From Candidatus Aenigmatarchaeota archaeon (GTDB lineage: Archaea; Aenigmatarchaeota; Aenigmatarchaeia; GW2011-AR5), in NCBI GenBank assembly GCA_016184005.1, contig JACPDL010000003.1, positions 380,974 through 444,973 on the forward strand: a DNA stretch of 64,000 bases, given 5' to 3'. The notes under the pieces are model-generated. The model saw only the letters and a list, made by a program, of their open reading frames with translations. It was not told the origin of the DNA and did no database searches. The position numbers and the translations under genes were made by a program. Shown here piece by piece: positions 4,111-54,237 of the stretch (positions are counted from its first letter, which is position 1; the number at the start of each line of letters is the position of its first letter).

Positions 4111-5043
4111 TTAATCTACGCACGCATTTATTTCTTCGTTTCTTATCATCTGGCCGTTCACGGCTTTTTCAAACTCTGCCAGGGATTTCGGGCCGATGAT
4201 TGTGGCGTTTCCTATGAAGAACGTCGGAGTGCCGTAAACGCCCGCGGCCTGTCCGTCCATGAAATCTTTCTTGACCTCTTCCAGATATTTCTGCGAATCA
4301 ATGCACTCGTCAAACCTTGCGGCATCAAGCCCTGCGGCCTTTGCCAGCGCCTTGAATGCATTGATGCTGTCAAGCTCCTTCTGCTTCTCAAACATCATGT
4401 CATGATACTTCCAGTAAAGCGCGTTCCCCTGTTCATGCGCGCATTCAGAAGCTTCTGCAGCCTCTGTGCTGAGCCTGTGCCTTTTGACAGGAAAGTTCCT
4501 GAAGACAAGCCTGATTTTGCCCTCATATTTTTTCAGCAGCTCTTTCATCACGGGCTCTGCCTTTTTCGTGTAAGGGCAGAGGTGGCAGCCGAATTCCACG
4601 ATTGTTATGTTGCCGCTTCCGGTGGACGGGTCGTCGTCTTCCGTGACAAGTTCCGGCCTCAGCGCTGCCGAGGACCCGACTATCGATGCGCCTTCCGGGT
4701 TTAAAATGCATATGTCTGTTGATTCGGGGCCGTTGCAGTTGCCGTAAACAGCGAGGTTATAGCCTCCCAGGCCGGCAAGGAAAAGGCTCGCAATCATTGA
4801 GGCAAGGAAAAGCCATGACAGCAGTTCAAATCTCCTGTATACAAGTCTTCCGAGTTTCTCCGATCTCTTCATCAGGCTTGCTGTTATCTTTGCCTTCATC
4901 TTCCGGTTGAATTCCGTGTCGCACGGCCTGAATGTCACCGTTCTGGAGACGCACCGGAACGCCTCCTTTGCATAAGCCCTGTACTTTGCCGAGAATATGC
5001 CAAGGATGCCGAATACAACAGCAGCTATTATGCAGAAAACCAT
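4111..5043 (-). CDS. Membrane-anchored DsbA-like thiol:disulfide oxidoreductase.
   Basis: 310 aa. It has N-terminal TM segments followed by a thioredoxin-fold domain. The CxxC active site is FGCHLCPYT. DsbA-family motifs include GTPTFFIGN. This fits the many Cys-rich exported proteins encoded nearby. Confidence 0.6.
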   Translation of the reverse strand: MVFCIIAAVVFGILGIFSAKYRAYAKEAFRCVSRTVTFRPCDTEFNRKMKAKITASLMKRSEKLGRLVYRRFELLSWLFLASMIASLFLAGLGGYNLAVYGNCNGPESTDICILNPEGASIVGSSAALRPELVTEDDDPSTGSGNITIVEFGCHLCPYTKKAEPVMKELLKKYEGKIRLVFRNFPVKRHRLSTEAAEASECAHEQGNALYWKYHDMMFEKQKELDSINAFKALAKAAGLDAARFDECIDSQKYLEEVKKDFMDGQAAGVYGTPTFFIGNATIIGPKSLAEFEKAVNGQMIRNEEINACVD

Positions 5044-9255: not shown

Positions 9256-9687
9256 TCAATCTTCGCATATCCCGCACTTTGTCGGTGACTGTGAGCAGGA
9301 AGTCTTGTATTGCTCGCAGCACTGCTCGAGTGTCGTGCCGAGGTTTTCGTTGCCTGAGCAGAGTTCGCACAAGCCGTCGCATTTCACGTCCTCGGATGTT
9401 GCGCAGCACAGCTTGTAGAGGCATGTGAACTTGCCGATATCAGGATTATTGAGGTATTTGCATGCCGAGTAGAAATCATTGAAGTCTTTCTGGTACGTGA
9501 CCCTCCAGTCGCATTGCTGCTTCTTGTAAGCGTCGCATTTGCTGAAGAATATCTCGTTGGCTTTTGCTGCCGTCATGCTGCCGCTGGACTGCGAAAGAAA
9601 GAATGCTGAAAGAATAATGAGGACAAGTACAAGAACCACGACTAAAACTATCATGCGCATCGGCAGTTCAAGACCTTTCATAAACAA
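9256..9687 (-). CDS. Small Cys-rich membrane protein (P1), paralogous to the 31362..31712 gene.
   Basis: The likely start is the internal MKGLELP (about 9681). It has an N-terminal TM helix followed by an extracellular Cys-rich domain. The motif DFNDFYSACKYL matches NYQKFYSSCKYVL in its paralog, and the N-termini align (MKGLELP versus MKGIDLP). It ends with a TGA stop. Confidence 0.5.
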   Translation of the reverse strand: MFMKGLELPMRMIVLVVVLVLVLIILSAFFLSQSSGSMTAAKANEIFFSKCDAYKKQQCDWRVTYQKDFNDFYSACKYLNNPDIGKFTCLYKLCCATSEDVKCDGLCELCSGNENLGTTLEQCCEQYKTSCSQSPTKCGICED

Positions 9688-9741
9688 ATCCCTTTTCTTG
9701 TAAGAAAAGGTCTTTGTAAACCCTAAAAGAACTTACAAAGA
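9685..9741 (+). repeat. 57-nt two-hairpin element (copy B).
   Basis: Intergenic, abutting the start of the 9256..9687 gene. Same architecture as copy A in the tRNA intron. Confidence 0.55.
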
Positions 9742-9763
9742 CTTTTTATTTTATGATTCCTTA

Positions 9764-12700
9764 CTAAATACCTAATCGATCGAGTATAGCGTTTCTCTTG
9801 GCCCAGATGACTACGACGGCCGCGATGATTATTGCGATGACCAACGCAGCGAGTAGAGGGCTGTCACCTTCTGTTTTTCCCGGCGTGGTTAATACTGGTT
9901 CTTGGGCGTCTGCCAGCGATTTGCCCACTCTGAACAATCTTGCATCTGACGTGGCGCTGGCATCCCTGCTGTCTCTTGCAAATACAAAATATTCCTGCAG
10001 TCCGCTGCTGATAGTTGAGTATGTGCATGTAAACTCGCTGCCGCTGCCGAGCAGCCTGCACAATACGTTCCTGCATTCTATGTCGGGGCAAACGAATGCA
10101 TCGCTTATTGCATCACCGTTTGGATCTGTTAATTCTGTATAGAACCTAACGCTCTGACCTTCCTCCATTTCAGCAGGTTCATTTCTCACGCTTCGTATCT
10201 GGGGAGGGCGGTTGGCTATGTCGCTTATTATTGTCGTAAAGAGAGCGGATTTCTTTTGGCTCGTTTTCTGGCTTTCTATCGAAATGTTAAGCGTGTTCAC
10301 ATCTCCGGGCTTTCTTTCGATCGGCGTGACCTTGAGTATGATCCCTGCGCTTCCATTCGGCAGCAACTCTACGGTGTTTTTTGCAGCATTATCAATCATT
10401 ATTGCCGCGTTACCTGACTCAATGCGGAATGTGAACGTATCGGTTTCATCCCCGGTGTTGCGCAATATTCCTGAGTAATCAACTGCAGTGCCGGGGTTTG
10501 CTGTTCCGCTGGCGCGTATCGGGTCGAATTGCATAACTGTTTTGAATACACTCTCTCCTGTAAGAGGGTCCTTTATATATCCCGGAGCTGTGCATTCGCC
10601 CCATGTGCATGAAGAAGTGCAGCGCTGTATGCAGGTGACTACGCTGCCGTCTTTCTCTATTTCCTGTGTCTGTGTCTCGGCGTCACTGCATTGTGCTTCA
10701 CATTGGTCTTTCACACATGAAAATGTCATTTGCTGCTGCTGGCACGTGCATGATGCAGTGCATAAGCCGGTGCTGGGCCTTGAGCCGTATTTCTTGCCGC
10801 TGCACTCAAAGCCTGTCTGTGTGCATTGTTCGCCTCTGTACGCAGGATCGCATGTTTCTGTACGGTCAAGCATCCCGTCGCCGCAGCCCGGAACGCGCGC
10901 GGAAATATATTTGGCTTTCGGCTCAATAGCGATGCACGCCGGACTGTCAAAAACAAACCCTGTCACGTTATGCGCCCCGCCTTTCGTCGGGCACTTGAAT
11001 CCCGTCACGCCCTGCTGGCTTCCTATCTTTGTGCAGCTTTCTCCGTCTATGCTGCAGCCTATGCAATTAGCGTCCCTGCTGGCAGTGACGCTGCATATGA
11101 CGCTGTTGCTTATTATTTCTGCGCGCACGCTGGAAACATAAATGTCTTTTGAATAGACGTCAAAGAATCCCGGCTCTGTCTCGTCATGAACCTCTGAAGA
11201 GCAGTCGGATTGCAGCGAGCCGACTATCCTGCACTGGAACTGCCATCTTCCTTCCGCACTTGCATTGCTGCGCACTGCGAAGTTGCGCTGTTCTCCTGTT
11301 TTTATCGGAACGCACGCTCCCCTTGCTTTTGTGATCGCCTGCTCGGGGTTTGTGAAGTCGCATTCAGCATAACCATAGTAATCGATGTTGCCCGCGTTCT
11401 TTGTCTGCACAACTGCGTCTATGAAAGTTCCAAGCTCAACGCTTCGGGAAATTGTCACATTCTCTATCTGCAACGCACCGGAAAGGGATTTCCTGCAGTA
11501 ATTATTGAACATGCCGCTTGCAAGGTTCTTTGTTATCGTGAGCTGCCTTCTTGCTTCTGTCGTATTCTTTTTCCCTGGAAAATCTACGACAGCGTCAAGA
11601 TAATTCCCATACTTCGTGAGGTTCCTTATTATAGTTCCCAATGCGTCTGCGCAGGCGAGAAACTGCCCGCGTTCTTCAGCAGTCGAGGCAATTCTTATCC
11701 TTTCGTCAAGCACGTCCTTGCCTTTCTCGAAGTTTATCCTTGATTCAGTTATGTTCTCCCGCGTTTGTACAATGCCAGGCAGGTTTACAAACGGGCAGGA
11801 AAAGCTGTAGTTTGCAGATCTGATAAAGCCGGATGCCGTTTGCGCTGCAAGATAGTACACGCCTTTTGTGTCGACGCATCTTGTCTGGCAGGATGTTTGC
11901 CTGATATCACCGCATATGCAGGGTTTGTCGACGCCGCAGTCTCTTGTTTCAAAACCCTGGGTGCAGTCGCTTACTGTAGCGTTACGCGAGCAGACGTAGT
12001 AGCCTGTGAATGGCTGTGCGAGGGTTGCGTTGAAGTCCACGCCATAATCTATTTCTATTTCGCATCTTTTGTTGGGTCCTGTGCAGCGGAACGGAGACGA
12101 AGGGCAGTCGCTGCTGCACGCCGTTTCCTCGCCTATTTGGCAAACGTTGTCGCCGCACAGCGTTATTGTGTGCGTTATGAAAAATGGTATGTCGGCTGTC
12201 TGGGATCTCACCGACAAGACTACTGGGTTCGCGCCCTCGCTTGCAGTAAGGTTGGGCACTACCGTGAGCGTGACTGTTGACGTCTGGTCCGCATCAACAA
12301 CCACTGTCGGATCGCTTAATGACGCCTTCCAGCCGAACGGCGTCAACGCTGAAAGCACGAAAAGCGTCGGCGGGAAGCCGATAATATCCTTGTTCTTTAT
12401 GACTATCTCAAATATCTGCGTTCTTCCAGGAGGGCCTGTAGACATTAATGGCGTTACAGAAACATCAGGGAAGTTTCCGGGAAGTATCTCGTACTGGGCG
12501 CTTGCAATGCCGATTACCCTGAATCTCGGCTCGAACAAGCCTACGCTGATATTGAACAGCCCCGTTGTGTTCTGCACAAGGAATGTTGCCGTTGTGCCGT
12601 TGTTGAGCCTGATTGTTTGCGTGACAAAAGTCAGGTTAACATTCGGCGTCACGACCATGTTGAACTTTCTTGTTTCTCCTCCACGCAATGCTACCTGCGA

Positions 12701-13231
12701 AGGCACAACGATCCTCCAGCCCGGCGGCCCGATTACGCTTGTTGTGAAGGTGAGATCAAAGCTGTTTGGGTTCCTTGTAGTCACTTCGTATGTTTTTTCT
12801 TCCGGCGCAGGAACGCTGATCTTTGCCGGCGTAATGTTTATCTCGATGTTCCTTTTCAGGAATGTAGCAAAAAGAAGTATGACCGTTGGTTTTGTCTTCT
12901 GGTTTGTCTTGCAGTTCTGGTTGACATTGCACTGCTTTGTCATTGCTCCGCCTACGCCTTCCTCGCATGTGTTCTGGCAGCTCACCGGCGTGCCGTCAGG
13001 GCAGACCGCAGTCGTGAGCCCTGTAGGCTTACAGTTCAGGAAACTTGTTTCTGTCCTGCCGGAAGCGTCTATGCACGTTTGTGTGTCGCATATCTCGCTG
13101 GTGCCGCGGCATCCTGTGCCCGGGAAGCAGGCTCCCTGTGCAAATCCCAGGGCGGTGAAAACGCTGAGTGAAAGCGCAAGCATGATGAATGCTGCAAATA
13201 TAATATTTGTTTTGTTTTTTTCTTTATTCAT
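9764..13231 (-). CDS. Large Cys-rich surface protein (B1) with a signal peptide and a C-terminal TM anchor.
   Basis: 1155 aa. The N-terminus is MNKEKNKTNIIFAAFIMLALSLSVFTALGFAQG. The C-terminus (LLAALVIAIIIAAVVVIWAKRNA) is a TM anchor. Many Cys and N-x-S/T sequons are present. A ~230-aa domain (C-x-G-x-DKPC-x-CG...SC...C-x-D...YYL...F-x-CP) is shared with the 31709..36463 protein. It ends TAG followed by TAA. Confidence 0.6.
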   Translation of the reverse strand: MNKEKNKTNIIFAAFIMLALSLSVFTALGFAQGACFPGTGCRGTSEICDTQTCIDASGRTETSFLNCKPTGLTTAVCPDGTPVSCQNTCEEGVGGAMTKQCNVNQNCKTNQKTKPTVILLFATFLKRNIEINITPAKISVPAPEEKTYEVTTRNPNSFDLTFTTSVIGPPGWRIVVPSQVALRGGETRKFNMVVTPNVNLTFVTQTIRLNNGTTATFLVQNTTGLFNISVGLFEPRFRVIGIASAQYEILPGNFPDVSVTPLMSTGPPGRTQIFEIVIKNKDIIGFPPTLFVLSALTPFGWKASLSDPTVVVDADQTSTVTLTVVPNLTASEGANPVVLSVRSQTADIPFFITHTITLCGDNVCQIGEETACSSDCPSSPFRCTGPNKRCEIEIDYGVDFNATLAQPFTGYYVCSRNATVSDCTQGFETRDCGVDKPCICGDIRQTSCQTRCVDTKGVYYLAAQTASGFIRSANYSFSCPFVNLPGIVQTRENITESRINFEKGKDVLDERIRIASTAEERGQFLACADALGTIIRNLTKYGNYLDAVVDFPGKKNTTEARRQLTITKNLASGMFNNYCRKSLSGALQIENVTISRSVELGTFIDAVVQTKNAGNIDYYGYAECDFTNPEQAITKARGACVPIKTGEQRNFAVRSNASAEGRWQFQCRIVGSLQSDCSSEVHDETEPGFFDVYSKDIYVSSVRAEIISNSVICSVTASRDANCIGCSIDGESCTKIGSQQGVTGFKCPTKGGAHNVTGFVFDSPACIAIEPKAKYISARVPGCGDGMLDRTETCDPAYRGEQCTQTGFECSGKKYGSRPSTGLCTASCTCQQQQMTFSCVKDQCEAQCSDAETQTQEIEKDGSVVTCIQRCTSSCTWGECTAPGYIKDPLTGESVFKTVMQFDPIRASGTANPGTAVDYSGILRNTGDETDTFTFRIESGNAAIMIDNAAKNTVELLPNGSAGIILKVTPIERKPGDVNTLNISIESQKTSQKKSALFTTIISDIANRPPQIRSVRNEPAEMEEGQSVRFYTELTDPNGDAISDAFVCPDIECRNVLCRLLGSGSEFTCTYSTISSGLQEYFVFARDSRDASATSDARLFRVGKSLADAQEPVLTTPGKTEGDSPLLAALVIAIIIAAVVVIWAKRNAILDRLGI

Positions 13232-13235
13232 TTTA

Positions 13236-15812
13236 TCACGGTGTTCCTGCTGTTGTTGCCACTGTTGAAGCTGAACCTTCTGTTGTGACGACTGCTATGA
13301 ATACAGCTTCAGTGGAAGGCGCTGTGAACGTGTAGCTAAATGCGCCGTTCGCATCTGTGGTTACTGTCGCTACATTCAGCACGCGGCCTTCCTGCGTCTT
13401 TATCTGTATGCTGACATCTTTCCCCTCGAAGCCGCCGCATGACTGCTCGCCGCACCTGAACGTTTTTTCTACCGATGCCACAGGATATCCCGGGCACACA
13501 GGCGATGCAGCTACAGGCGTCCTGCCAATATTCTTTCCGCATATGCTGTAGCAGCCGCCCTGCGGCAGCGGCGTGCTCTGAGCGAACATAGCTGCCCCAA
13601 CTTGCGCGCCTATGAGGCCTGCTGTCTTAAGTGCTGATTCCGAAGTGATACCTGTTTTCGGGTTGCATGAAATAATCGGGCAGTTCTCGCCATTTATTTG
13701 TTTAATTGTTTGGCTAGGAACAGTGTTATCAGGGCACACTTGCTGGACAGGACAAGGTCCAGATTGTGTTTCTGGTATTTCTACTTCTGATCCTGTATAT
13801 GGTCCTGGTGTTTGTCCTGATTGCCTGTTTCTTGCTTCATCAGAAAGCTTAGACGGGTCTGTCACTTCTCCACTTGCTCCAGAGTCGGGTAAATCAGGAA
13901 AATCTTGTGCATAAGCAAGAGGGAAATATGCGCTGCCGAATGGCGATGCAGCAGCTGTGCCTGATTGTTGGAACGGTGAAGTGTCTACAGGCAGATAAGT
14001 TGCATCTCCTTGCTGTATAGCATATTCAACAAACGTATCATGGCGGGTAGGGAGAAGATAATCTTCTTCATCGCTTCCGACTAAATGCCAAAAGCTATCG
14101 TCTGCTCTTTCATAAGTTTTACCGAAAAGAACGATCCTGTCGCCAACATCAAAAGGTCTTGTTCGGGCACCTGCTGCCTGCCCGGTAGTTTCGCTAGATG
14201 CCATTGTTCGGGCACCTGCTACTTCTGCTATTGTTTCGCTAATTGCATTAGCAACAACTGTTTGGTCATTAATGTCTTTGCCTTCTAGTTTTGTTCTAAG
14301 AATTGTTTTTGCGCGCTGGCATTCTTGAGCTTGTACTTCTGGCGTCGTGATATCAAGAGCCAAAGCTGCGCACACACCTTCTTGCAGCTTTTCCAAACTT
14401 AATGTTTGAGTAGTTCCTCCACTGCCTTGATAATTAGTTCCTATAATGACAACTTCACCGGTTCCAGGATCACGATAAGATCTTACTTCTCCTGTGCCGG
14501 GATCACGCTGCACATCTAATGCGCTGCTTGTACTCTCCAGGAAAGGATATCTTGTTCCTTCAGTGCCTGCTGTGCCGCCGCCCGGTGTAGGAACATCCTT
14601 TGCAATAAGTCCACCAGCTGCAGTCGCTGTAGAAAGACCTGATAATGCTACAGCGCCTTGACTCACTGTACCAAAGGTTGCACTCAGTGCGGCTGCTATT
14701 GCAGCTGAGAAGACTATGGTCGCAACAGCGACAACCATGAGGGCAATGCCGATGATTCTCATCCAGTTCGTGGTGCAGATGGGGCCTTTCTTGCCGCCGG
14801 GGATTTGAACATCCGGGCTGCAGTCATTCGGGATAACGCAGGTTTTGAAAAAGCCCTGGTCAACATGGCAGCCGGCGTTGTATTGCATGCGGCATTCGTA
14901 CTGGGCGCCGTTGCATATATTGGAGAATTTAGTCACAGTGCCTGTGATTGTCAACTGGGTGCCTGTCGGAACAAGCTTGGGATTTATGTCGGCTTCCAAA
15001 GTCACTCTACTGACTTCCGAGCACACGACATCGTTTGCAGGCTTTTTGGATGCGGTATCTGTTACGTCAGCGGGATCCAGAAGAAAGCCGCGCGTGCCGG
15101 GAACCGAGGCTGTGTTAAATCCCTGAAGGCCTGTTGTGCCTTGCTGATTATTCTGCTGGTTGTTTACATTGAACGCAACCCCGAAGCGCTGGCAGGTGCA
15201 CCACTCGTTGACTTGGCAGCCGTACTGCAGGCCTTTGCCGAGGGTAAATGTCTGGCCTGCAACACCAACGCCGACATTGCTTCCTGCACCATACACGGCT
15301 GATGTAGCGAGGGCGAGTTCTTGCGTGGAGCAGATGCCTATCGGAACAGAGCCTCCAATGTTGCCGCCGGCTGTGCCGCTTACGCTGGTTCTTGCGAAGC
15401 ACTGGTCGTTGCATGTCTGAGCTGAAGTGCCAAGCGGCGACCTGCTTCTATCAACAGTAACGCTTGAACCGCCCGAACTTGTGAAAATATTTCTGCTCTG
15501 GATTTCTGTAAGGAAGGTTCTCAGCGCCGCCACGCATTGATCCCTGCTGTCGTATTGGCCTTGCAAAGGACTCGGTGGATTGCCGTTAAAATAAGTGTTA
15601 AGCTGGCCGGCAAATGTATCGTATGTTTGGATGCATGAAGATTCCAGGCATGAAACCGAAAGAATAGGCTCGCTCAGTGTTGCGCAGGCATATGCAGGCC
15701 TTTGCGTTTGTGCGCTTGCTGTTCCGATGCGCGCGAAAGGGTAAGGGAGAATTGAGATTACAAGAATAAAGGAAAGAAATACGGCTATGAATTTGAGTTC
15801 TTTGTGTTTCAT
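13236..15812 (-). CDS. Secreted, membrane-associated surface protein with an internal TM segment and a C-terminal beta-sandwich-like domain.
   Basis: 858 aa. A signal peptide is present. It is Cys-, Thr- and Gly-rich, with an internal hydrophobic helix (IIGIALMVVAVATIVFSAAIAAAL). It lies 4 bp upstream of B1, so co-transcription is likely. Confidence 0.5.
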   Translation of the reverse strand: MKHKELKFIAVFLSFILVISILPYPFARIGTASAQTQRPAYACATLSEPILSVSCLESSCIQTYDTFAGQLNTYFNGNPPSPLQGQYDSRDQCVAALRTFLTEIQSRNIFTSSGGSSVTVDRSRSPLGTSAQTCNDQCFARTSVSGTAGGNIGGSVPIGICSTQELALATSAVYGAGSNVGVGVAGQTFTLGKGLQYGCQVNEWCTCQRFGVAFNVNNQQNNQQGTTGLQGFNTASVPGTRGFLLDPADVTDTASKKPANDVVCSEVSRVTLEADINPKLVPTGTQLTITGTVTKFSNICNGAQYECRMQYNAGCHVDQGFFKTCVIPNDCSPDVQIPGGKKGPICTTNWMRIIGIALMVVAVATIVFSAAIAAALSATFGTVSQGAVALSGLSTATAAGGLIAKDVPTPGGGTAGTEGTRYPFLESTSSALDVQRDPGTGEVRSYRDPGTGEVVIIGTNYQGSGGTTQTLSLEKLQEGVCAALALDITTPEVQAQECQRAKTILRTKLEGKDINDQTVVANAISETIAEVAGARTMASSETTGQAAGARTRPFDVGDRIVLFGKTYERADDSFWHLVGSDEEDYLLPTRHDTFVEYAIQQGDATYLPVDTSPFQQSGTAAASPFGSAYFPLAYAQDFPDLPDSGASGEVTDPSKLSDEARNRQSGQTPGPYTGSEVEIPETQSGPCPVQQVCPDNTVPSQTIKQINGENCPIISCNPKTGITSESALKTAGLIGAQVGAAMFAQSTPLPQGGCYSICGKNIGRTPVAASPVCPGYPVASVEKTFRCGEQSCGGFEGKDVSIQIKTQEGRVLNVATVTTDANGAFSYTFTAPSTEAVFIAVVTTEGSASTVATTAGTP

Positions 15813-20543: not shown

Positions 20544-23500
20544 TCAGACGCAGCCTTGGCAGACGAAAACGCCCCCCAGGAAAGCCTGTTCTGTTGAGCT
20601 GCCGGATGTTATGACGCCTTTTATCTCGTTGGGCGCTCCTGCTCTCCATCCGCCTGACCGCGACACGTTGAATGCCGCGCAACCGCTCGGTCCTGTAAGC
20701 ACGCTGAGCGTTACATTATTTGTGAACGGGTCGTACATCGTGATGTTCTCCGTTGTTGGCGGGCCGCTGAAGCTGAAGCTTTGTGTGGTCACGTTCGTTA
20801 CGTTCGCGCCTATGAGCGGCGTTTCGGGCCTCGAGTATGTGAAGGCGCATGCCCTGATCGTAATATTCCTGTTCACTGTAGACGAACTGCTTGTTATCAT
20901 CGTTGTAGGAGAACCTTCGTTGCGCTTTCCTAAAAGGATTTTGATGACCGTACTGTTGACTGTCTGGTTGCCGTCTACCTTGTATGTGTCTGTAGGCGAG
21001 AAACTCAATTGCCCGGTCCAGTTGTTAAACGCGGGCGTTGTAGAGCCTGTGTCTTGGAGGGTGGTGTTTGTGTTAAGCACAGCGTCGTCGTCTATGACCA
21101 GCTCTGTGAAATGGCCGCCCAGTATGAATGTAAGAGGCCCCCCGAAAGCGAAAGACCCGCTCTGCGTTGCGTTTCTCAGCGCGAAATAGTAAAATTCGCT
21201 GCCGGAACTGCTGTTTATGATATCGCCTTGTGCTGATTCGTTCCATGTCCCAATGTAGAATTCCGCGCCGGTGATTGTCGCATTATAAGCTCCGTTATCT
21301 GTTGTTCTCGTAAGCGTGATTGCGCGCGGGCTGTAGCCGCTCGTTCCGCTGTCCAGATCCGTCCTGAACGATTTTATCCCTATGGGCACGCCTTCCGAAA
21401 AGTCTGCAATGTCGGAATCGCCGCTAATAGCGTCGGTGAAATTCCACATGATGCTGTACAGTCCGCTCTTTGATATGTTCAGCTGCAGGAATGCCACGCC
21501 GTTCGAGTCCGTTGTTGCAGGAGTTTTTGTGTAATTGCTGGAAGGCAGGAAATCCTTGAACCCGAAGCCGCCCCTTCCGCCCCCGAAGTCTTCCTGCTGT
21601 ATCATCTGGTAAACATCCAATATAACGCTTGCTTGCGCGGTTGTTCCTTTTTTCACTATAAACGGTATCGTTGCTATTGTATTCACGGCGTGCTGCCCGC
21701 CGAAGCCCGCGCCGCGGTCGCTCTCGGTTATCGTGCTGTTCAGAAGCTTGACATAGCCGCAGTCTTCCACTTTTACAAGATAAAGCCCGCCGAAGCCCGC
21801 TGACTGCAATGAGCGGCGTGCCGTTGCATTGCCTATTGTTCCACTGTTATTAATTACAAGCGTGTCGTACACGCCTGCTGTTGCATTGTCAAGAGCCACA
21901 AGCGTTACGTTCGCTTTATACGTGATGGGCTGGTCGCCTCCCATACCGAAGCGCGTCACGTTGAAATCTTTTATTATGCATACCATGTCGGAACGCGAAC
22001 TCACATTATGCGTGCTTCTTATAGCAGTAAGGTTGATGTTGAATCTCGCGATGGTGTCCGTTGAATTCGAAGCGTTCACGCCGAAGCTGTCGAACAGGAT
22101 GCCTTCCGTGTCCGGGACCGATATGGACAGTTTAGAAGCTGTCCCGAACATCATCACGTCCGTCGATTCGCCGAGGTAATTGTTCACCTTGATGACTATC
22201 ATGTTGCCTCCTTTCCTTATGCCAGCGGGAACGGTGAACGTCACGTTCCAGCGCTCGAAGTTGTCAAAGCCTGTTTGCGCGGAATTATTCCATCCATCAG
22301 CTTTCAGGCTGTAGTTAACCACGACCGCGTCAAGCACAGAGCCTTCCCATGGGAATCCGACCTGCACCGTGACGTTTGTCACGTTTGTCCGTGCCATGAT
22401 GTTGTACGTTATATTCTGCCCTGCCACCAGCGCCTGCGGCGGGCCGCCGAATGCGAAGTCAGGAAACGCGTCGAACGCCACGACCATGAAGCCGCCAAAG
22501 GATGTGTCGCACAAGTCGTCGGCGGCATTCGTGTTGTTGATGTTGTCGCACACGCGTATTACAAAATCATTGAAGCCGTTGAACCATTTGCCGCCCAGCC
22601 CGGAGAAGTTTCCGGGGACTAGTGTAATATTCGCAACGCCGTTTATTATAGGGAAGTTGTTTGTCAGGCCTGCGATGAATTTCGGCCCTTTCCCGGGGTC
22701 AAAGCTCTCGACCCTTAAGATGTTCACGGTCCCGTTGACGGTAGCGTTCCTCGTGTTGAGGTTCTTTATGCCTGTTATCAGCATGTTTATCCCGGATGTC
22801 GGCGCCACGAAAAAGCCGCCGCTTCCCGTCGAGCCTATCGCCTGTATCTGCGGGAAGAATGACAGCTGGCGGCACTCGAATCCGCCCGGCAGCGAATCAG
22901 ACTTGCCGTCTGCCGTGGTGATGTTTACCAGCATGAAATAGAATCCTGAGAACTGGCCTGAAAAGTTTATGGTAAGGTTGCCGAGGCCGTTGCTGTTTGT
23001 TGACGAAGAGGATGTTATTGACATGGAGCTCTTGACATTCCTGCCTGTAAGCTCCTCTCTGGCCTCTAATATGGAATTGAAGACAACGTTCTTTGCCGCC
23101 TGGCGCGTGCGGACATCGAACACCTTTGCGGAGAAGCTCTGCGCGCCGCTGCAGCGGAAGTCTCCGCCCTCGCCGAATTCGCCTTCGTCTTCTCCCCCGC
23201 CTGTCCCGAAGCCGCCGCCAAAGCTGCCGGGGAACGCGAAGCCTTCAACATAACGGGCAAAATAAAAGGCATTGCCACGGATAATGGAACCTGCAACAGT
23301 TGCCTGAAATTCAATCTGGAAAGGCCCTGTACTGTTCTCGGGTATTTTTATCACGGCCCTCGGATTTGATGATGCCGTTCCGGCAGTGAACGCGCCGGTC
23401 AGCCCGGTGAAACTGGTTATTTCCGACGTTGTTTCGCCTGTGAACGACATCGGCGTTATCTTGGTTACATTGAAACTTGTTATGTTTGCTCCGTCAACAG

Positions 23501-29120: not shown

Positions 29121-29585
29121 CTAATAACCTACTAATCCTTTTGTATCGTCCGATATCTTTACTTTGTCGATATACCATTTTTTACTCAAAGTTTCAATAA
29201 CATATTCTGTTAAGTTGCCCAGTTGGTCACTTGAAAGTCTACTATCGTACAGTAACATAATAATCGCATAATTTGTTGCATGTACCCAATAAGTAGCTCT
29301 AACTTCATAAAGTCCCTTTTCCTTGTCAACAAGTCTGTTAAGATCTTCGTAGAAATACTTCTGAAACTCAGAATTCTCAATAAAATTTGTATCGGGTGAT
29401 CTGTTAAGTACAGTGACAGCTATTACATTACCATATTGTTTACCATTAAATGATATTAATAATTCTCGAGATTCTGATAATGTAATGTTTTCTGATTGTG
29501 ACGAAACTTGATAATTAATTCCAAGAATTACGGGTATTAACATAATTACTCCTATAACATAAACCCAATATTTCTTAATTTTCAT
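29121..29585 (-). CDS. Small N-terminally anchored membrane protein, paralogous to the 29851..30255 gene.
   Basis: 154 aa. The N-terminal TM segment is MKIKKYWVYVIGVIMLIPVILG, which matches MKLKKGYWVYVGVLFVLLLSFIG in the paralog. AT-rich. Confidence 0.4.
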   Translation of the reverse strand: MKIKKYWVYVIGVIMLIPVILGINYQVSSQSENITLSESRELLISFNGKQYGNVIAVTVLNRSPDTNFIENSEFQKYFYEDLNRLVDKEKGLYEVRATYWVHATNYAIIMLLYDSRLSSDQLGNLTEYVIETLSKKWYIDKVKISDDTKGLVGY

Positions 29586-29854
29586 TCTATCACCTTTTGT
29601 ACAGCTTCGAACTCGTTGTTCGGTATTGTTAATAAGAAGTCCGAAAGTTGCTTTGTTCCTGCCGTCACTCTATATTTCAAATAATTATCAGAGTAATTAT
29701 TTGCAAATGTATGTTTAAGCACTATCGTTACATATACTTCCGAATTATTGTTAAGTTTTTCTAATATCTTGGAATCAATCTCAGGAATAGCAGTTACAAT
29801 ATTGGAGAGCATTGATATACAAATTAAACTAAGTAGTATAGATATACTTCTCAT
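29582..29854 (-). CDS. Small secreted or membrane protein, the middle gene of a three-gene operon.
   Basis: 90 aa with an N-terminal hydrophobic segment. Its stop and start overlap the neighbouring genes (ATGA). Confidence 0.35.
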   Translation of the reverse strand: MRSISILLSLICISMLSNIVTAIPEIDSKILEKLNNNSEVYVTIVLKHTFANNYSDNYLKYRVTAGTKQLSDFLLTIPNNEFEAVQKVIE

Positions 29855-30255
29855 AACAACACACCTTTACCAGGTATGTGAGCACCAAGCGTGTACCATC
29901 TTGATTTCAAGATTTCAATCAGTTCTTTTATTAGTTGGTCACTGGAACCAGAATATTCTACATCCAATACAACCCATCCATTACTTAATGTTCCCCACTG
30001 AAAAATCCCAATTTCTTTCAACATTGAGTGCTTGATTGATTTTATGTCCCGAGAAAAGTACTCTTGAAATTTTAGATTAGTTGCGGACGCCACCATATCA
30101 TCCTGAGTCATTCCATTGAAAGTAACTGTAATTCTTTGGACTTGTGTGATACTTTGAAACTTATTACTAGAAGGGGTCAAATAAAATCCTATAAAACTCA
30201 ACAACAAAACAAATAATACTCCAACATAAACCCAGTATCCTTTCTTCAGTTTCAT
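29851..30255 (-). CDS. Small N-terminally anchored membrane protein, paralogous to the 29121..29585 gene.
   Basis: 134 aa. It shares the N-terminal pattern and a W-Y motif with the 29121 gene. Confidence 0.4.
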   Translation of the reverse strand: MKLKKGYWVYVGVLFVLLLSFIGFYLTPSSNKFQSITQVQRITVTFNGMTQDDMVASATNLKFQEYFSRDIKSIKHSMLKEIGIFQWGTLSNGWVVLDVEYSGSSDQLIKELIEILKSRWYTLGAHIPGKGVLL

Positions 30256-31361: not shown

Positions 31362-31712
31362 TTATTTTTTCAAGAGCTCAACAAAGTCTCTGATGTTCTG
31401 CTGAACCTCTTCCTCTGTGACTTCAGCTGAGCAGCCGCATTGCTCTAAACACTGATAGGGCTTTTCTTCTACCTGGTCGCCAAGAACATACTTGCAGGAA
31501 CTATAAAATTTCTGGTAATTGTCTTTCAGCTCAGCGCTTGTATCATAGCCGCATCTGAGAAGCCTGCATGTGGATGCAAAGTATGTCTGGGCTTCAGCGT
31601 CAGAGCCGAATTGGGTTACTGACGACGAGAAAAAGAAAGAAACAGAAACAAGCAGCATAACGCCTACTAAAGCTACAACAATGAAATTAAACGGCAGGTC
31701 TATGCCTTTCAT
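31362..31712 (-). CDS. Small Cys-rich membrane protein (P2), paralogous to the 9256..9687 gene.
   Basis: 116 aa. N-terminal TM helix. The motif NYQKFYSSCKYVLGD matches its paralog. Its start ATG overlaps the stop of the upstream giant gene (ATGA). Confidence 0.5.
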   Translation of the reverse strand: MKGIDLPFNFIVVALVGVMLLVSVSFFFSSSVTQFGSDAEAQTYFASTCRLLRCGYDTSAELKDNYQKFYSSCKYVLGDQVEEKPYQCLEQCGCSAEVTEEEVQQNIRDFVELLKK

Positions 31713-34700
31713 GATTCAACCCTCACGCGTGCGCGGAAATATATGTACAAACCGGCAGGCACTCCAACAAGTACGGCAAGAAAGAGTATTACATTAAGCG
31801 GTAAAGGTATTGGATTCAGGGACGGCGGAGGGTTCGGGACCGGTTCAAGCCCGACTGATGACGCCACGCATTTATTTTCATCCGAGCATACCTGCCCGGA
31901 AGCGCACTGTACGTCGATGGTGCATTCTATTGCCGCACACTGATAATTTATGCACTTCGTGCCGAGCGAGCATGCCTGGCAGGAACTGCCGCCGCAGAAG
32001 CACCTGATATCTGTTCCAGGACAGTTTGTACTAACAGAACATTCAGGAACAGGCGCTTCAGAGACTACGAATGCTTCATTTACAACCCTGCTCGATTCGA
32101 TAAATGGGACATCAGCTGCGTTATAAACACTGCAGGATCTTACAGTCCATGTACCGGCTGTTCTTGTTTCAACAGTAGCGAAGAATGTCCTGGTTTCCTG
32201 AGCCAGCAGGCTTTGCGGCTCGGATGCCCCGTAGAACATATCGCCGCGCGGATTAGAGAATGTGCAATTGATATAGGCGCTTTGATCCTTTGTGTCCGTG
32301 TTCCTCACGTCGGCCTGGAGTATTGCTTCCTCGCCCGCAACTATGTCAGCAGGCTTGTTTATCGAGACGAACGAAAGAACAGGGCCGCGTATCTGCAAGA
32401 TTCCCAATGAAAGAAGATCAGACAGAACAGGCGAAGAGCACTGGTTGTTTGTTGATGAGAGCACGGAGCAGGTAACATTAGCTGATCTTGGTGTTTGCGT
32501 GTCTATAGGAACGGAAAATCCTTTTGTCCTGTTCGCTGATATGAACTGGCAGGAAGATGCTCGCACCGTCGTAGTTGAATTTCCTCTGAACTCGCACTCT
32601 ACACGTGCATATATATCCCTGCCCCTGTTGTTGACATTAACGACGAAAGAAGAATTGCTGCCCACTATTATGTCTACTGGCATCTGCGTGCTGTTTATCG
32701 AGACAGCCGAGACAACTGGCGTGAAAATAAGCTCAAGCACGCGTCCCTTGATTTCCCTGCCCCTTGTAATTATTTCATTCGCCTTGCTGACAGACAGCGA
32801 TCGCATGCTGTCATTTACATAATTCAGATAGTCCCTGATCACTGAAAGGCCTATCACCACCCTCTGGCGCAGGTTATCATATTCCAGTTTCTTTTCCCCC
32901 TCGCTGCGCTCGATAAGGTATATCAGCTGCTGCCTGATTACTTCGCCCTTTATTGCAAGCTCCCTGAATTCCGCAGTGAGGTTATCGATCTCGCCGAGGC
33001 GGAAGCTTGGGCATGCGAAATCCCTGCCGTTGCTTACTATCACCTTCTCTTCGAAGGCCGAGAAGCCTTTGACAACGAGATAGAACGTGCTGTTCAAATC
33101 ATTGCATTTCAGGTCGCATGAAAGTGACGACAGCGAGCCGCACAGGCAAGGCTTGTCAAGCCCGCAATTCTGGCTGCCTACGCTGTAAGAATCCTTGCAA
33201 TCGGCAATCCTTGTGTTGCCGTTGCATGCTATGAAAGTAGGGAATGTTATGGCTGACAACATGCTTCCGGAGAAGTTCACTCCCGTATCTGTCTGGTCGT
33301 ATCTCACTGTGCCGAAGCTTGTGAAGTCATACCTGTTTCCCGAAAGGTCTATGCTGAACGATCTCTCAGCTGTGCCAATTGGTCCTGTAGAACCAACTGC
33401 GCGCGCTTCTATTTTGCACGTGTTCGCACCCTCAGTCCTGCAGTCCATTGACGGTCCTACGCTGATTGTTACTGCGCCGTTGCACGATCTGTTTTTGAGC
33501 ATTACAGTCTCCGTTACGCCGCTGATGATGCGATAGTCGCACCTGTCTATGCCGTATTTGAATGAATCGCCTATCGTGACGGTGAAGTTGCTTACCTGCC
33601 AGATGCCTGGCTGCGGAGACAAGATTGAAACTGCGGGCTGCGCCATGTCTATTACATATTCACCTCTTGCCGGAGCGCCGTCTCTTGAGAGCACATCTAT
33701 GGCGCGCGCTTCTACGACACATGATCCTGTGTTGCAGACACTTGGCACAGGAATGATGACTTCCATATTGCAGTCGCGGAATGACCAGTTTCTTTTTACC
33801 TCGCCGTTGCTAATGACGCGGTAATCGCATGTAAGCAGATTTCCTGTATCGTTTATACTGACTGAAAAGTTCGCCCCTCTCAGGCTGCCGTTAGCAGGCG
33901 AGATTATCTGTGTAGATGGCAGATTGATGCCTGCGACATTGAATTCAACCGGCTCTGAAAATCCTTCGTTGTTTGCCAAATCTTTCGCGACTGCACAAAC
34001 AAAAGCGCGGCGTGTTACATTTCTTGGAGCTCCTGTGTCATACAGCGAGTAGTTTTGCGGGCAATCAGCGGTCTCTGAGAGCACGACTCTTATTGATTCG
34101 TTTCTGCATCCTACATTGTCTGTACACAAAACAGTTGCAATCGCACTTTCCTGCGGTTGTGCCGGAGCGCCTTCTACTATAACGGTTGGTACAGTGTTGT
34201 CGCTGGTTACTGTTAATGGGAAGACGCCGATTGTGCTGTTAACTGGTACATCTTCTCTTAGGGTGCACGAGATTGATTTTGCTCCGTTGTCTGTCCATGT
34301 GCTGTTGAAAGAGCATGAAGGATTGCTTCTCCTGAAGCCGCTGTTGCAAAGCACAGAACTTTCTGATGTACATTCAAGTGAAATGTTTTTCTGCGCAATT
34401 GCTGTGCTGCTGAATAATATTTCTGTTCCTGTTTTTACAACGTTTGGTGAAACACGCACTGAGGCTGTGCCATTGCATGGTCCGCTAACTGAAACATTCT
34501 CGGTTCTTCTGTCCCTGACAACAAACTGGCAGGCAGCGCTGCTGCATCCATAATCCCTTTGCTCCTGCTCGATACGAACTGACAATTCATTGCTGTCGCA
34601 TGTAACAACTGTTGTTGTCGTGTTGTACCAGCCGTCTTTCGAATTGCAGCTCTCGCAGGTTCTGGTGCCGCAGCTTGTGTCTGTGTTGGAGCAGAAACTG

Positions 34701-36463
34701 AAGACGCTTCCTGCAACGCAGTACTGCGTTTCTGCATTGATCTTCCTGTTGCGCAGCTCAAATATTGCTGAAACCCCTCTGCTGTAGTCTCCATGATCTC
34801 TGGCAATGAGATTTATGAAATTGCTGTCGTTGTGAACTATAAAGCCTGTGATGTCGCTGTTTAGGGTTTGTGATGTCCTGCAGCTGGCGGTTTTTCCGGG
34901 GTTGCTGTAATCCGTGCAGACATGCGGGCAGCTGCTTGCGTCTTCTGCAATTGTTTCTGTCTGAAGGGTATTGCGCAGGATTACGCCGCCGGTATCATCT
35001 GTTGCAAATTCCTTTAGTGCAGCCTGATATGTGCACTGGCTGACAGGCAGCGTGTCCATGGCGCTGCATGCGGTGCCGTTGTCGACGCAGTTCTTTGCGC
35101 CAAAGGGCCCGCCTTCAGCAATCACAACATCCCCGCCGCAGCCGCTGCAGGCATCAGACCTGACACAGTTTGCTTTCCAGATCTTGTACGTGTATTTGTC
35201 GGTGGTCGGCAAGCTGAAGGTTTCGGACGCCGGACCGCTGAAACATACGTTTGGTGGGTAATCAAGTCTTGTACCGGCGGAATCGTAGACCTTGACATGG
35301 TTCACAGATCCTCCGCCGCCTGTTGCTGTCCACTTTATGGTCGCCTTAAGTGTGGGGCCGTCAGTGTATTCGACGCATACCTCCGAATCTCCGGTGCCTT
35401 TTTTGCACCCTACCTCCACGCCCGGGATCGGATACGAGTCGCACGCGGTCATGTTCACGGTAAGGATGACGTCAGTCGCAGTCTCGTTTGTCGTTACGGT
35501 TTTCTTCACCGTCTCGTTGACAGCGTCGCTTCCGGGGGGATTTTTTATGCAGGCAGCCAGCTCCTCTGTCTGCGTCCATCCGCATTGTCCGCTTGCCTGC
35601 CTTTCACACATGCCAAACTCCTTGTAGCATGCGTATTCAGGTTTGGATTCGCATGTCGTGGCTATACTGTCTATGAAAGAAGCCTCCCCGCACAGCTCGC
35701 CTGAGCATCCGCCGATCTTGCAGCCTGAAGGGGTGCTTACCGACCAGTAAACGATCACGCGGCCGGCTGCGCCGAAGCCGCCATGATATCCGGTGTCGCC
35801 GCCGCCACCGCCTCCGGGTGTCCCGCCTGCTCTGCCTGCAAAGCCGCCGAAGCCGCCGTTCGGGGAGGAGCCGCCTTGTCCGCCAACATCCCGTCCGTTC
35901 TGCCCGGCTCCGCCGGTGATGCTTAGCGTCCCGTTGCTTGTGCCGCCGGCTCCGCCTATGCTGCCGCCTCCGCCAACAGCAGCACTTGTTGGCAAGCCTC
36001 CCATCCTGCCGCCTGAAGCGTAGATGAGACCTCCGAAGCTGCTGTTGTAACCATGATAATAACCGTCATAAGTCCCGTTCTTGCCTACTATAACCGTGTA
36101 AGCGGTGCCCGGCCTGACAGTGTATATGCCTTTTCCATAGCCTCCTCCTCCGCCTCCGCCGCCTGCACACGGAACATACGTGTATGTACCCGGAGAAAAT
36201 TCGGTTGGAGCAATAATTTCTACATTTCCGCAAAGCGTCCCTACTGCTCCGGGCCCTCCCATTCCGCCCGCGCCCCAGATTTCGATCATGACGCTTGTTA
36301 CATTCGGCGGGGCAGTCCATGAAAAGGTGCCCGGGGTGTCGAAGACCTTCATGTTTGTGTATCCGCCCCCGGCCTGCGCAAAGCTTATGCTGGATGCCGT
36401 AAGAAACAATCCGGAAATGGCAAGAATCGTGAAAAACAGGGCTGTGCGGAATGCTTTGCGCAT
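31709..36463 (-). CDS. Giant Cys-rich surface protein (B2) with a Gly-rich N-terminal region and a C-terminal TM anchor.
   Basis: 1584 aa. It has a signal peptide and poly-Gly stretches. The shared domain ADCKDSYSVGSQNCGLDKPCLCGSLSSLSCDLKCNDLNSTFYLV...FACPSF aligns with B1. The C-terminus is PLPLNVILFLAVLVGVPAGLYIYFRAR. Confidence 0.6.
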   Translation of the reverse strand: MRKAFRTALFFTILAISGLFLTASSISFAQAGGGYTNMKVFDTPGTFSWTAPPNVTSVMIEIWGAGGMGGPGAVGTLCGNVEIIAPTEFSPGTYTYVPCAGGGGGGGGYGKGIYTVRPGTAYTVIVGKNGTYDGYYHGYNSSFGGLIYASGGRMGGLPTSAAVGGGGSIGGAGGTSNGTLSITGGAGQNGRDVGGQGGSSPNGGFGGFAGRAGGTPGGGGGGDTGYHGGFGAAGRVIVYWSVSTPSGCKIGGCSGELCGEASFIDSIATTCESKPEYACYKEFGMCERQASGQCGWTQTEELAACIKNPPGSDAVNETVKKTVTTNETATDVILTVNMTACDSYPIPGVEVGCKKGTGDSEVCVEYTDGPTLKATIKWTATGGGGSVNHVKVYDSAGTRLDYPPNVCFSGPASETFSLPTTDKYTYKIWKANCVRSDACSGCGGDVVIAEGGPFGAKNCVDNGTACSAMDTLPVSQCTYQAALKEFATDDTGGVILRNTLQTETIAEDASSCPHVCTDYSNPGKTASCRTSQTLNSDITGFIVHNDSNFINLIARDHGDYSRGVSAIFELRNRKINAETQYCVAGSVFSFCSNTDTSCGTRTCESCNSKDGWYNTTTTVVTCDSNELSVRIEQEQRDYGCSSAACQFVVRDRRTENVSVSGPCNGTASVRVSPNVVKTGTEILFSSTAIAQKNISLECTSESSVLCNSGFRRSNPSCSFNSTWTDNGAKSISCTLREDVPVNSTIGVFPLTVTSDNTVPTVIVEGAPAQPQESAIATVLCTDNVGCRNESIRVVLSETADCPQNYSLYDTGAPRNVTRRAFVCAVAKDLANNEGFSEPVEFNVAGINLPSTQIISPANGSLRGANFSVSINDTGNLLTCDYRVISNGEVKRNWSFRDCNMEVIIPVPSVCNTGSCVVEARAIDVLSRDGAPARGEYVIDMAQPAVSILSPQPGIWQVSNFTVTIGDSFKYGIDRCDYRIISGVTETVMLKNRSCNGAVTISVGPSMDCRTEGANTCKIEARAVGSTGPIGTAERSFSIDLSGNRYDFTSFGTVRYDQTDTGVNFSGSMLSAITFPTFIACNGNTRIADCKDSYSVGSQNCGLDKPCLCGSLSSLSCDLKCNDLNSTFYLVVKGFSAFEEKVIVSNGRDFACPSFRLGEIDNLTAEFRELAIKGEVIRQQLIYLIERSEGEKKLEYDNLRQRVVIGLSVIRDYLNYVNDSMRSLSVSKANEIITRGREIKGRVLELIFTPVVSAVSINSTQMPVDIIVGSNSSFVVNVNNRGRDIYARVECEFRGNSTTTVRASSCQFISANRTKGFSVPIDTQTPRSANVTCSVLSSTNNQCSSPVLSDLLSLGILQIRGPVLSFVSINKPADIVAGEEAILQADVRNTDTKDQSAYINCTFSNPRGDMFYGASEPQSLLAQETRTFFATVETRTAGTWTVRSCSVYNAADVPFIESSRVVNEAFVVSEAPVPECSVSTNCPGTDIRCFCGGSSCQACSLGTKCINYQCAAIECTIDVQCASGQVCSDENKCVASSVGLEPVPNPPPSLNPIPLPLNVILFLAVLVGVPAGLYIYFRARVRVES

Positions 36464-40831: not shown

Positions 40832-40968
40832 AGCGGAGTGGAGCATTGATTTTAGAAATTTCTATAATCACTCGAAGCCTGGAGTGCTCGTCGGGCCCAT
40901 AACCCGAAGGCCAGAGGTTCAAAAACAAGTCACAAAAATGGGACTTGTGGAATTTCCTCTCTCCGCTA
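40832..40968 (+). tRNA. Initiator tRNA-Met (anticodon CAU) with two non-canonical introns, one in the D arm (about 31-34 nt) and one in the T loop (40924-40954).
   Basis: It has an A1:U72 acceptor pair (AGCGGAG/CTCCGCT, discriminator A). The anticodon stem TCGGG/CCCGA has three consecutive G:C pairs. The anticodon loop is CCCATAA (CAU). The T stem AGAGG/CCTCT is split by a 31-nt insert with the BHB layout A-ACAAGTC-loop-GACTTGT-GGAA-TT (central helix TTCA/GGAA, 3 of 4 pairs). The D stem GAGC/GCTC is separated by about 41 nt that includes the hairpin GATT-T-TAGAAATTTCTA-TA-ATC. The exact D-arm junction is ambiguous. Confidence 0.7.
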
Positions 40969-54113: not shown

Positions 54114-54237
54114 TGCTCTCGGCGGGATTTGAACCCGCGTCCGCGGCGATCTCCAGTTTTTCCCCGAGGGCTTTTGCGCCTCAGCGGAAAAGGGCTCTGA
54201 GAGGCCACTATCCTTGACCGGGCTAGACTACGAGAGC
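54114..54237 (-). tRNA. tRNA-Glu (anticodon CUC) with a 49-nt canonical 37/38 intron (54149-54197).
   Basis: The acceptor stem is GCTCTCG/CGAGAGC with discriminator A. The D arm is GTCT-AGCCCGGTCAA-GGAT. The anticodon stem is GTGGC/GCCGC and the loop is CUCUCA|C. The T arm is GCGGG-TTCAAAT-CCCGC. The intron's BHB central helix is CTCT/GGAG with bulges CA|G and AT|C. Confidence 0.75.

Follow-up and report, generated by a model that had tools for sequence, protein, structure and literature searches.

DPANN archaea are believed to rely on direct host-cell contact, and their surface machinery is almost entirely unannotated. In the S-layer pair of Sulfolobales, the large subunit SlaA has no membrane anchor and is held by SlaB, a small subunit with a C-terminal anchor and a long coiled coil. 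A different group, the archaeal class III signal-peptide proteins, combines a basic leader ending in K/R-G, a conserved hydrophobic helix, a small, variable, disulfide-containing C-terminal domain and frequent tandem paralogs, all of which are shared by the small proteins described below. Within DPANN, NEQ255 has been described as a DPANN-restricted small secreted or membrane protein beside Ig-domain S-layer-like proteins and as a priority unknown, in an account that gives no structure, motif or partner module (2019, PMC6393860).

We analysed a window of 64,000 nucleotides from a Candidatus Aenigmatarchaeota archaeon, in which two gene pairs are found on the (-) strand. Large A (9764..13231) is accompanied by small A' (9256..9681), and large B (31709..36463) by small B' (31362..31712). 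As in SlaA/SlaB, a gene for a very large protein of the outer surface lies next to one for a far smaller, helical partner inserted in the membrane, but no sequence or fold similarity to that pair was seen. NEQ255, likewise a small DPANN protein near Ig-domain surface genes, is a possible member of the small-protein family. The ORFs reported in the initial annotation are all present as described; orthologs at 31-97% identity in many samples rule out chance or non-coding ORFs. A viral origin was also rejected, as no relatives were found in viral contigs.

Large A is a type I membrane surface protein of 1155 aa with 54 Cys, and its orthologs were recovered (P0014-P0018). Its order is Sec-type signal peptide, NEW3/CARDB-like Ig domains, the module shared with large B, a Cys-rich region, Ig-like domains and a C-terminal transmembrane (TM) segment. 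Residues 268-342 match NEW3 (PF10633) in Pfam with an E-value of 9.2e-6 and 26.2 bits against a gathering cut-off of 24.4, a match that is limited to one N-terminal domain of large A and does not cover the shared module. From a hydropathy scan, the TM anchor is placed at 9803..9859 (-) (aa ~1125-1143), followed by a basic tail, and this layout is common to all long homologs. Large B (1584 aa, 74 Cys) starts with a signal peptide and a Gly-rich N-terminal domain. It also contains many Ig-like or Cys-rich domains as well as the shared module, and its C-terminal TM segment lies at nt 31736-31795 (-) (aa ~1557-1576). Orthologs of large B with the same neighbours, RNase Z and a P-type ATPase, occur in two other loci (L002 and L083). 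The N-terminal hydrophobic signal and C-terminal TM segment proposed earlier are thus seen in both large proteins. For PGF-CTERM/archaeosortase sorting, there was no NCBIfam sorting-signal match and no PGF motif in the C-termini; large B reached only 26.8 bits against the NCBIfam CGP-CTERM Cys-rich protein model, below its cut-off of 200.

A third large ORF, Large3 (13236..15812, (-), 858 aa), is the first gene of an A-type three-gene cluster, with its 3' end 4 nt before large A; the initial annotation had also placed it ahead of this module. The protein carries a signal peptide and Cys-rich regions, has a hydrophobic segment in its interior (aa ~345-384) and ends in an Ig-like domain; its domain matches are weak and MG2/SdrD_B-like only. 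What had not been anticipated is that Large3 is itself a conserved partner: jackhmmer found homologs 5' of the large gene at every A-type locus whose upstream region was fetched (L001, L006, L008, L009, L013, L014 and L015). Large surface proteins other than A and B (1483, 2141, 858 and 489 aa) are also encoded in the window; they lack the module, and none of their genes is directly followed by a small-family gene of its own. Some 4 kb from the A gene pair lies a gene for a membrane-bound DsbA-like thiol-disulfide oxidoreductase (4111..5043, (-); Pfam DSBA E 5.4e-21, Thioredoxin_4 E 1.7e-24). This protein is a plausible source of disulfides in these ectodomains.

The shared module is seen where large A residues 393-681 align with large B residues 1057-1346 (BLASTP, 24% identity, E 8e-19). 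The Cys motif (C-G-x-DKPC-x-CG, C-x3-C-x-D, Y-Y/F-L, F/Y-x-CP) is present in this alignment, and most motif Cys are invariant across six homologs. The similarity proposed by the initial annotation therefore holds under alignment statistics, although the domain spans about 300 aa and not about 230. In large A the module has three parts, all on the (-) strand. Part 1 (11783..12079, aa 385-483) appears as a small beta-rich Cys-knot with 8 invariant Cys in the alignment, in a region of the AlphaFold2 model with low to moderate confidence. Part 2 (11492..11782, aa 484-580) is predicted by AlphaFold2 to be a three-helix bundle, with three long helices at model residues 100-130, 134-165 and 173-196. 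Part 3 (11153..11473, aa 587-693) is an Ig-like beta-sandwich, which like the NEW3 match relates large A to CARDB/NEW3-type Ig-like domains. In large B the module is located at 32414..33355 (-) (aa 1037-1350) by the jackhmmer domain table, and an extra Ig-like repeat follows at nt 32114-32383 (-) (aa 1361-1450). Sequence searches of Pfam, NCBIfam and PDB with the module returned no significant family. Module-bearing genes turned up only in MAGs of Aenigmatarchaeota and in a small number of unclassified contigs from metagenomes, in a genome scan with A-type-specific peptide patterns, which biases the loci found.

Small A' has 141 aa and 14 Cys when read from the ATG at 9681 (MKGLELP...), which is almost certainly the true start rather than the TTG at 9687, because its homologs begin with MKG. 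After the MKG leader and LELP come a TM helix (aa 8-32) and a predicted disulfide-rich all-alpha ectodomain. Small B' (116 aa) has the same kind of N-terminus and 6 conserved Cys, without the C-terminal Cys-rich extension of A'; in A'-type proteins this extension carries C-x3-C-x2-C and CC motifs. Each protein has one N-terminal TM segment. They are paralogs, as had been proposed, with 31% identity and E 1e-8 over an alignment that includes F-Y-S-[AS]-C-K-Y. The structural model is confident (pLDDT 87.8) and shows a bundle made only of alpha-helices, with a break behind the TM helix. No significant family was found for the small proteins in Pfam, NCBIfam or PDB sequence searches, and no fold match in the PDB.

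The pairing is not peculiar to this genome. A small-family gene lies downstream, on the same strand, in 17 of 17 distinct module-bearing large genes with a sequenced 3' end, which come from Aenigmatarchaeota MAGs and other metagenomic archaeal contigs. The co-occurrence outside this genome, by which the initial annotation proposed to check its claim, is therefore complete in this set. Sixteen of the small genes are within 481 nt of the large gene or overlap it by up to 50 nt, and the remaining one is about 1.8 kb away, with NTase/HEPN genes inserted in between. Adjacency is kept across three or more paralog types, with module identity down to about 12%. The ATGA stop/start overlap described for B and B' was confirmed, and further ATGA overlaps occur in both pairs of L009 and in L002, with a single-base overlap in L083. 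These overlaps suggest translational coupling of the large and small genes.

The two partners have also diverged together. Identity matrices for the Cys-knot plus helix part and for the small ectodomain correlate with a Mantel r of 0.87 (permutation p about 5e-4), a value inflated by shared phylogeny, and the A and B paralogs of one genome have identities of 0.24 (module) and 0.23 (small ectodomain). This correlation indicates that the pairs duplicated and diverged as units, in line with the earlier proposal that the pairing was preserved after duplication. Two short variants, L081 and L082, are independent cases in which exactly the module and the small gene are kept. Their large proteins stop directly behind the helical bundle and lack both the Ig domain and a TM segment; the distance to the small gene downstream is 5 and 79 nt. 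Since these variants stop at that point, the conserved association is placed at the Cys-knot plus helix part.

The pairing found in every related genome examined points to what is probably a new cell-surface complex. Our preferred reading, to which we give a probability of roughly 0.45, is that each gene pair encodes two subunits of one DPANN cell-surface complex, with the small subunit docking on the Cys-knot/helix module. Paralogy, strict gene adjacency, co-divergence and the predicted folds and topology form its computed basis; physical binding, the docking site, disulfide formation and a role in adhesion or envelope structure are what we infer from these. The large protein would be exported by its Sec-type signal peptide and would display a long chain of Ig-like and Cys-rich domains, with A and B each held by a TM helix at its own C-terminus. 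Insertion of the small protein would be N-in/C-out, through its highly conserved pilin-like N-terminal helix, exposing a disulfide-stabilised helical bundle of 80-110 aa. This bundle may dock on the never-changing part of the large proteins, the Cys-knot and three-helix bundle, and so hold the large protein at the membrane or set its orientation there. There is a problem of reach. In large A about 450 aa, or four or five domains, separate the module from the TM anchor, and a tethered partner of ~100 aa would meet the module only in a large protein that folds back or runs along the membrane surface.

The anchor role that the initial annotation had suggested needs narrowing. A and B carry their own TM anchors, so the small protein is not needed to anchor them, and the idea fits only L081 and L082, where the small protein is a plausible anchor and would be the sole tether. 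These short variants most closely resemble the logic of SlaA/SlaB. The large subunit is anchored in A, B and all long homologs, with only L081 and L082 anchorless, and the small partner has an N-terminal anchor with an ectodomain of only about 100 aa, in contrast to the C-terminal anchor of SlaB.

Other explanations have to be weighed against this complex, and the first arises from the small family at large. It has at least 575 representative clusters, is unannotated, and has a near-invariant N-terminus, MKG-[LIM]-[ES]-LP-IN plus a hydrophobic helix, resembling a class III (pilin-type) signal. A short basic leader ending in [K/R]-G, followed by [LIM][ES]LP[IV]N and about 22 hydrophobic residues, is present in 136 of 161 members, all of which thus have the positive leader and hydrophobic helix of at least about 20 aa typical of class III signal peptides. 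The leader has 3 residues in 85 members and 4-6 in 33, with K at -1 relative to G in 118 of the 136; in the window it is MKG, followed by LELP in A' and IDLP in B'. It is conceivable, but in our view unlikely, that the small proteins are type IV-filament subunits: a class III signal peptidase would cut the MKG leader and the helix would drive assembly of a pseudopilus or short pilus, with the large proteins as adhesins that this filament presents or that associate with it. The conserved N-terminus with a variable C-terminal domain and tandem arrays of up to 9 copies are pilin-like traits. The same N-terminal motif heads larger proteins, such as a 479-aa ORF in L053, and all products of a conserved neighbouring gene cluster start with [KR]G and a hydrophobic stretch; these DPANN neighbours have no significant Pfam, NCBIfam or PDB family. 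FlaI/FlaJ homologs are reported for most Aenigmarchaeota MAGs (PMC8407114). Against a filament, Pilin_N (PF07790), Class_IIIsignal (PF04021), N_methyl and the NCBIfam archaellin/pilin N-terminal models gave no match to the window proteins at E up to 1, and pilin N-terminal models were absent among the 25 most-matched Pfam families of 35 diverse small-family members. The predicted all-alpha bundle with its break after the TM helix is not the pilin fold, a long N-terminal helix on a beta-sheet (alpha/beta) domain, although all-alpha pilins, ComGC among them, are said to exist. A sizeable subgroup of 25 of the 161 members, including many A'-type partners, is leaderless and starts with M-[EQ]-L-P, a start confirmed in L006, where an in-frame stop codon lies two codons further upstream. 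A and B, with Sec signals and their own TM anchors, are unlike pilus-tip adhesins. Unlike type IV pilin systems, the small family has no linkage to an ATPase, platform protein or peptidase: regex searches of all ORFs found no secretion-ATPase Walker or A24 prepilin peptidase motif in the 64-kb window or around family genes at about 80 loci (flanks of up to 8 kb each, extended to 10 kb at a few). As pilin genes are often unlinked to machinery genes and the tests were regex-based, this missing linkage is weak evidence.

The small protein is not exclusive to the module-bearing large genes. Small-family arrays often have no such large gene nearby: among about 15 loci whose upstream sequence was long enough, only 2 had one, in a search with KGLELPIN patterns that biases the loci found. 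The basic function of the family therefore cannot depend on the large partner. This favours a reading with no binding at all, in which the small protein would act on its own as a Cys-rich factor that is secreted or stays in the membrane, such as a signalling peptide or one active on host membranes, and would simply share an operon with surface proteins needed at the same time. The 76-nt A-A' spacer contains two hairpins with 15-bp and 8-bp stems (9691..9742, (-)), seen in the sequence and in a terminator-like scan, and spacers at other A-type loci measure 50-481 nt, which would allow separate expression of the two genes. Weak, non-significant likeness to thionin-like, bacteriocin-like and viral envelope TM proteins is in the same direction. 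We still find mere co-regulation unlikely, given the adjacency kept over such divergent paralogs, the nearly equal rates at which module and small protein diverge, the stop/start overlaps, and the short variants. More doubtful again is the idea that the small protein is dedicated to maturing the large protein's Cys-knot, as a disulfide chaperone tethered to the membrane or as an escort. Both partners are very Cys-rich, the Cys motifs of the A'-type extension would suit it, and the partner is translated right after its client, a gene order fitting an assembly factor. However, the six Cys common to the whole family look structural and sit in a compact bundle without a thioredoxin fold, and the CxxC-type extension is missing from B'. 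A gene for a generic DsbA-like enzyme lies nearby, and family arrays occur with no client.

The analysis of the surface complex defines a small-protein family that has no Pfam or NCBIfam model, a Cys-knot/three-helix/Ig module, and a strict, co-diverging pairing of the two. The signature MKG-LELPIN can be used to annotate many hypothetical proteins, and the pairs are targets for complex structure prediction, envelope proteomics and cryo-ET of cultivated DPANN-host systems. In a bolder and rather improbable version, MKG-LELPIN proteins would be new DPANN-specific filament or membrane-platform subunits, with a pilin-type helix and a novel disulfide-locked all-alpha head that captures the Cys-knot/three-helix "plug" of giant adhesins. 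If true, interchangeable host-binding proteins would be shown on one conserved scaffold, as a modular attachment apparatus for the episymbiotic lifestyle.

The open reading frames named in the initial annotation are all present on the minus strand. Both Cys-rich giant surface proteins, large A (9764-13231, minus, 1155 aa) and large B (31709-36463, minus, 1584 aa), have the hydrophobic N-terminal signal sequence and C-terminal transmembrane segment attributed to them, the latter followed by a basic tail, with a Cys content of approximately 4.7% in each. The proposed common domain is found at residues 393-681 of A and 1057-1346 of B (24% identity, E 8e-19), and in a profile from six homologs the module measures about 315 aa and has invariant Cys. 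AlphaFold2, run on this shallow six-sequence alignment (mean pLDDT 74.5, pTM 0.40), divides it into three predicted parts: a small Cys-knot rich in beta structure (low confidence), three helices, each some 24-32 residues long, and an Ig-like sandwich (high confidence). Large B also contains a glycine-rich N-terminal domain at residues ~30-240 (GGGYTNMKVFDTPGTFSWTAPPNVTSV...IWGAGGMGG...), which matches no family in Pfam or NCBIfam, followed at residues 245-308 by a weak, sub-threshold match to a CGP-CTERM-anchored Cys-rich protein model.

The gene of a third surface protein, large3 (13236-15812), ends 4 nt before large A. Besides a signal peptide, this protein has a single strong hydrophobic segment in its interior (residues ~345-384), flanked on either side by conserved Cys-rich and Ig-like parts. 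In the window protein a second transmembrane segment is only weakly apparent, and the L006 homolog lacks it; other homologs occur in L008, L009 and L013-L015. Two more giant surface-type proteins, of 1483 and 2141 aa, are encoded at 20544-24995 and 57032-63457 (both minus), with no Pfam matches. With 77 N-x-S/T sequons but only 12 Cys, the former is a candidate S-layer glycoprotein; the latter contains 68 Cys and internal repeats. The module common to A and B is absent from the window's other large surface proteins, and none of these is directly followed by a small-family gene of its own.

The small membrane proteins downstream of A and B, termed A' (141 aa, MKGLELP...) and B' (31362-31712, 116 aa), are paralogous, as had been suggested (31% identity, E 1e-8). 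Translation of A' most likely begins with the ATG at 9681 rather than the TTG at 9687, because its homologs begin with MKG. The start codon of B' lies within the stop codon of B (ATGA), whereas A and A' are separated by a 76-nt spacer holding two hairpins with 15-bp and 8-bp stems (9691-9742). Other A-type loci have spacers of 50-481 nt and B-type pairs overlap, so the two types may differ in partner stoichiometry or regulation. A further tandem of paralogous small proteins (29121-29585 and 29851-30255, minus; 154 and 134 aa; 28% identity, E 2e-10) has an N-terminal hydrophobic segment and no Pfam match, and is unrelated to this family.

An exhaustive profile search places A' and B' in a family of 575 representative clusters at E ≤ 1e-3, or 116 at E ≤ 1e-10, with sizes of 63-193 aa among the best 150 of the 575 matches. 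Members that were looked up are named only “hypothetical protein”, and none of 35 scanned against Pfam matched a family. The N-terminus is the most conserved stretch. In 136 of 161 sequences it opens with a short basic leader that ends in [K/R]-G and measures 3 residues in 85 and 4-6 residues in 33; [LIM]-[ES]-L-P-[IV]-N comes next, and then a hydrophobic helix. The remaining 25 start leaderless at M-[EQ]-L-P; in L006 this start is genuine, with an in-frame stop two codons upstream.

Module-bearing large genes were sought with local HMMs in all fetched loci and counted if their 3' end was sequenced, which gave 17 distinct genes (window A and B, L001, L002, L006, L008, two in L009, L012-L015, L025, L052, L081, L082 and L083), covering at least four paralog types: A-like, B-like, the 1755-aa type of L009 and a short type. 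Co-occurrence, whose absence outside this genome would have refuted the initial annotation, holds throughout: in 17/17 a gene of the small family lies downstream in the same orientation. In sixteen pairs the gap is at most 481 nt or the genes overlap, by no more than 50 nt. The sole split pair is that of L008, where the small gene is displaced by ~1.8 kb by inserted genes (9957-11619). Of these, three encode NTP_transf_2 (minimal nucleotidyltransferase) proteins and one a HEPN protein, and they look like toxin-antitoxin modules.

Identities of the Cys-knot and helix region correlate with those of the small ectodomain (Mantel r 0.87, permutation p about 5e-4; r is inflated by shared phylogeny and is not proof of binding), and the two sets of values are nearly equal, also between the A and B pairs of this genome (0.24 and 0.23, respectively). 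This indicates that pairs were duplicated and inherited as units, with no partner swapping. In L081 (GCA_053529875.1) and L082 the large protein stops directly after the three-helix bundle, with neither Ig domain nor transmembrane segment, and the small gene begins 5 nt and 79 nt further on, respectively. Such a layout suggests that the small protein partners the Cys-knot and helix part, and it makes an anchoring role plausible in these short variants.

The best-supported model, to which we give a probability of about 0.45, is a two-subunit surface complex. The large subunit would be Sec-exported and adhesin-like or S-layer-like, and the small subunit, presumably helical and anchored by its N-terminus, would dock on the Cys-knot/three-helix module. 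A DsbA-like membrane protein encoded 4 kb away fits with oxidised, extracytoplasmic Cys-rich domains. Co-regulation of the two genes with no binding between their products is an unlikely explanation, and a dedicated maturation factor as the role of the small protein is more improbable still.

That the small protein is a true type IV filament subunit is likewise doubtful. Its N-terminus resembles a class III (pilin-type) signal, and the array organisation of the family is pilin-like: among metagenome loci fetched by the KGLELPIN signature, tandem arrays are frequent, with up to 9 copies (L038). However, the family failed the tests of model match, fold and linkage, and some of its members have no leader. 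It also extends beyond the pairing, since of about 15 such loci that reach 6 kb or more upstream, only 2 (L025, L052) contain a module-bearing gene. No secretion-ATPase or A24-peptidase motifs were found near small-family members, and no relatives in viral contigs. FlaI/FlaJ homologs are reported in most Aenigmarchaeota MAGs (PMC8407114). Archaeal type IV filament systems are the subject of a 2026 preprint, which does not mention Aenigmarchaeota and, in the passages checked, describes no such family.

Small-family genes are also frequent within a conserved, wholly unannotated cluster (L020 392-8357; also L017, L022, L024, L036, L048, L051, L056 and L005), on archaeal, probably DPANN, contigs. 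Its six or seven proteins, of about 300, 600, 130, 320, 290 and 460-670 aa, all start with [KR]G and a hydrophobic stretch. Next in order are two small proteins, “MKGVSLAIETII” and “MKGLELPINMIVV”, with an Alba-like gene between them, and then, on the other strand, FEN-1; the Alba-like and FEN-1-like genes were identified by eye. One member in L005 carries an SLT lytic transglycosylase domain. The set looks like a pilin- or pseudopilin-like one, with no ATPase nearby.

The pairs of the window are surrounded by housekeeping genes (MetRS, AspRS, ribosomal proteins L37e and S8e, RNase Z and a P-type ATPase), and the closest named relatives of the locus, Candidatus Aenigmatarchaeota MAGs, have identical gene order. 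Rfam reports a tRNA at 54114-54237 (minus, 47 bits), whose 124-nt span presumably includes an intron; by ARAGORN the whole window has none. LAGLIDADG-like motifs were recognised by eye in two ORFs (39415-40431 and 40966-41733, minus), which sit in the lowest-GC stretch of the window (0.33 at 40-42 kb) and may be free-standing homing endonuclease genes.

What the initial annotation observed is thus borne out and widened. Its reading of the pair as a functional unit, possibly of surface protein and anchor or chaperone, gains partial support: the functional unit is supported, an anchor would fit the short variants only, and the chaperone is hypothetical. A small protein in Makarova et al. may belong to the same family. 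On the theme of a “large surface protein plus small membrane subunit”, the pair represents an uncharacterised variant with new predicted folds and an N-terminal module resembling that of pilins, moderately interesting for the biology of the DPANN cell surface.
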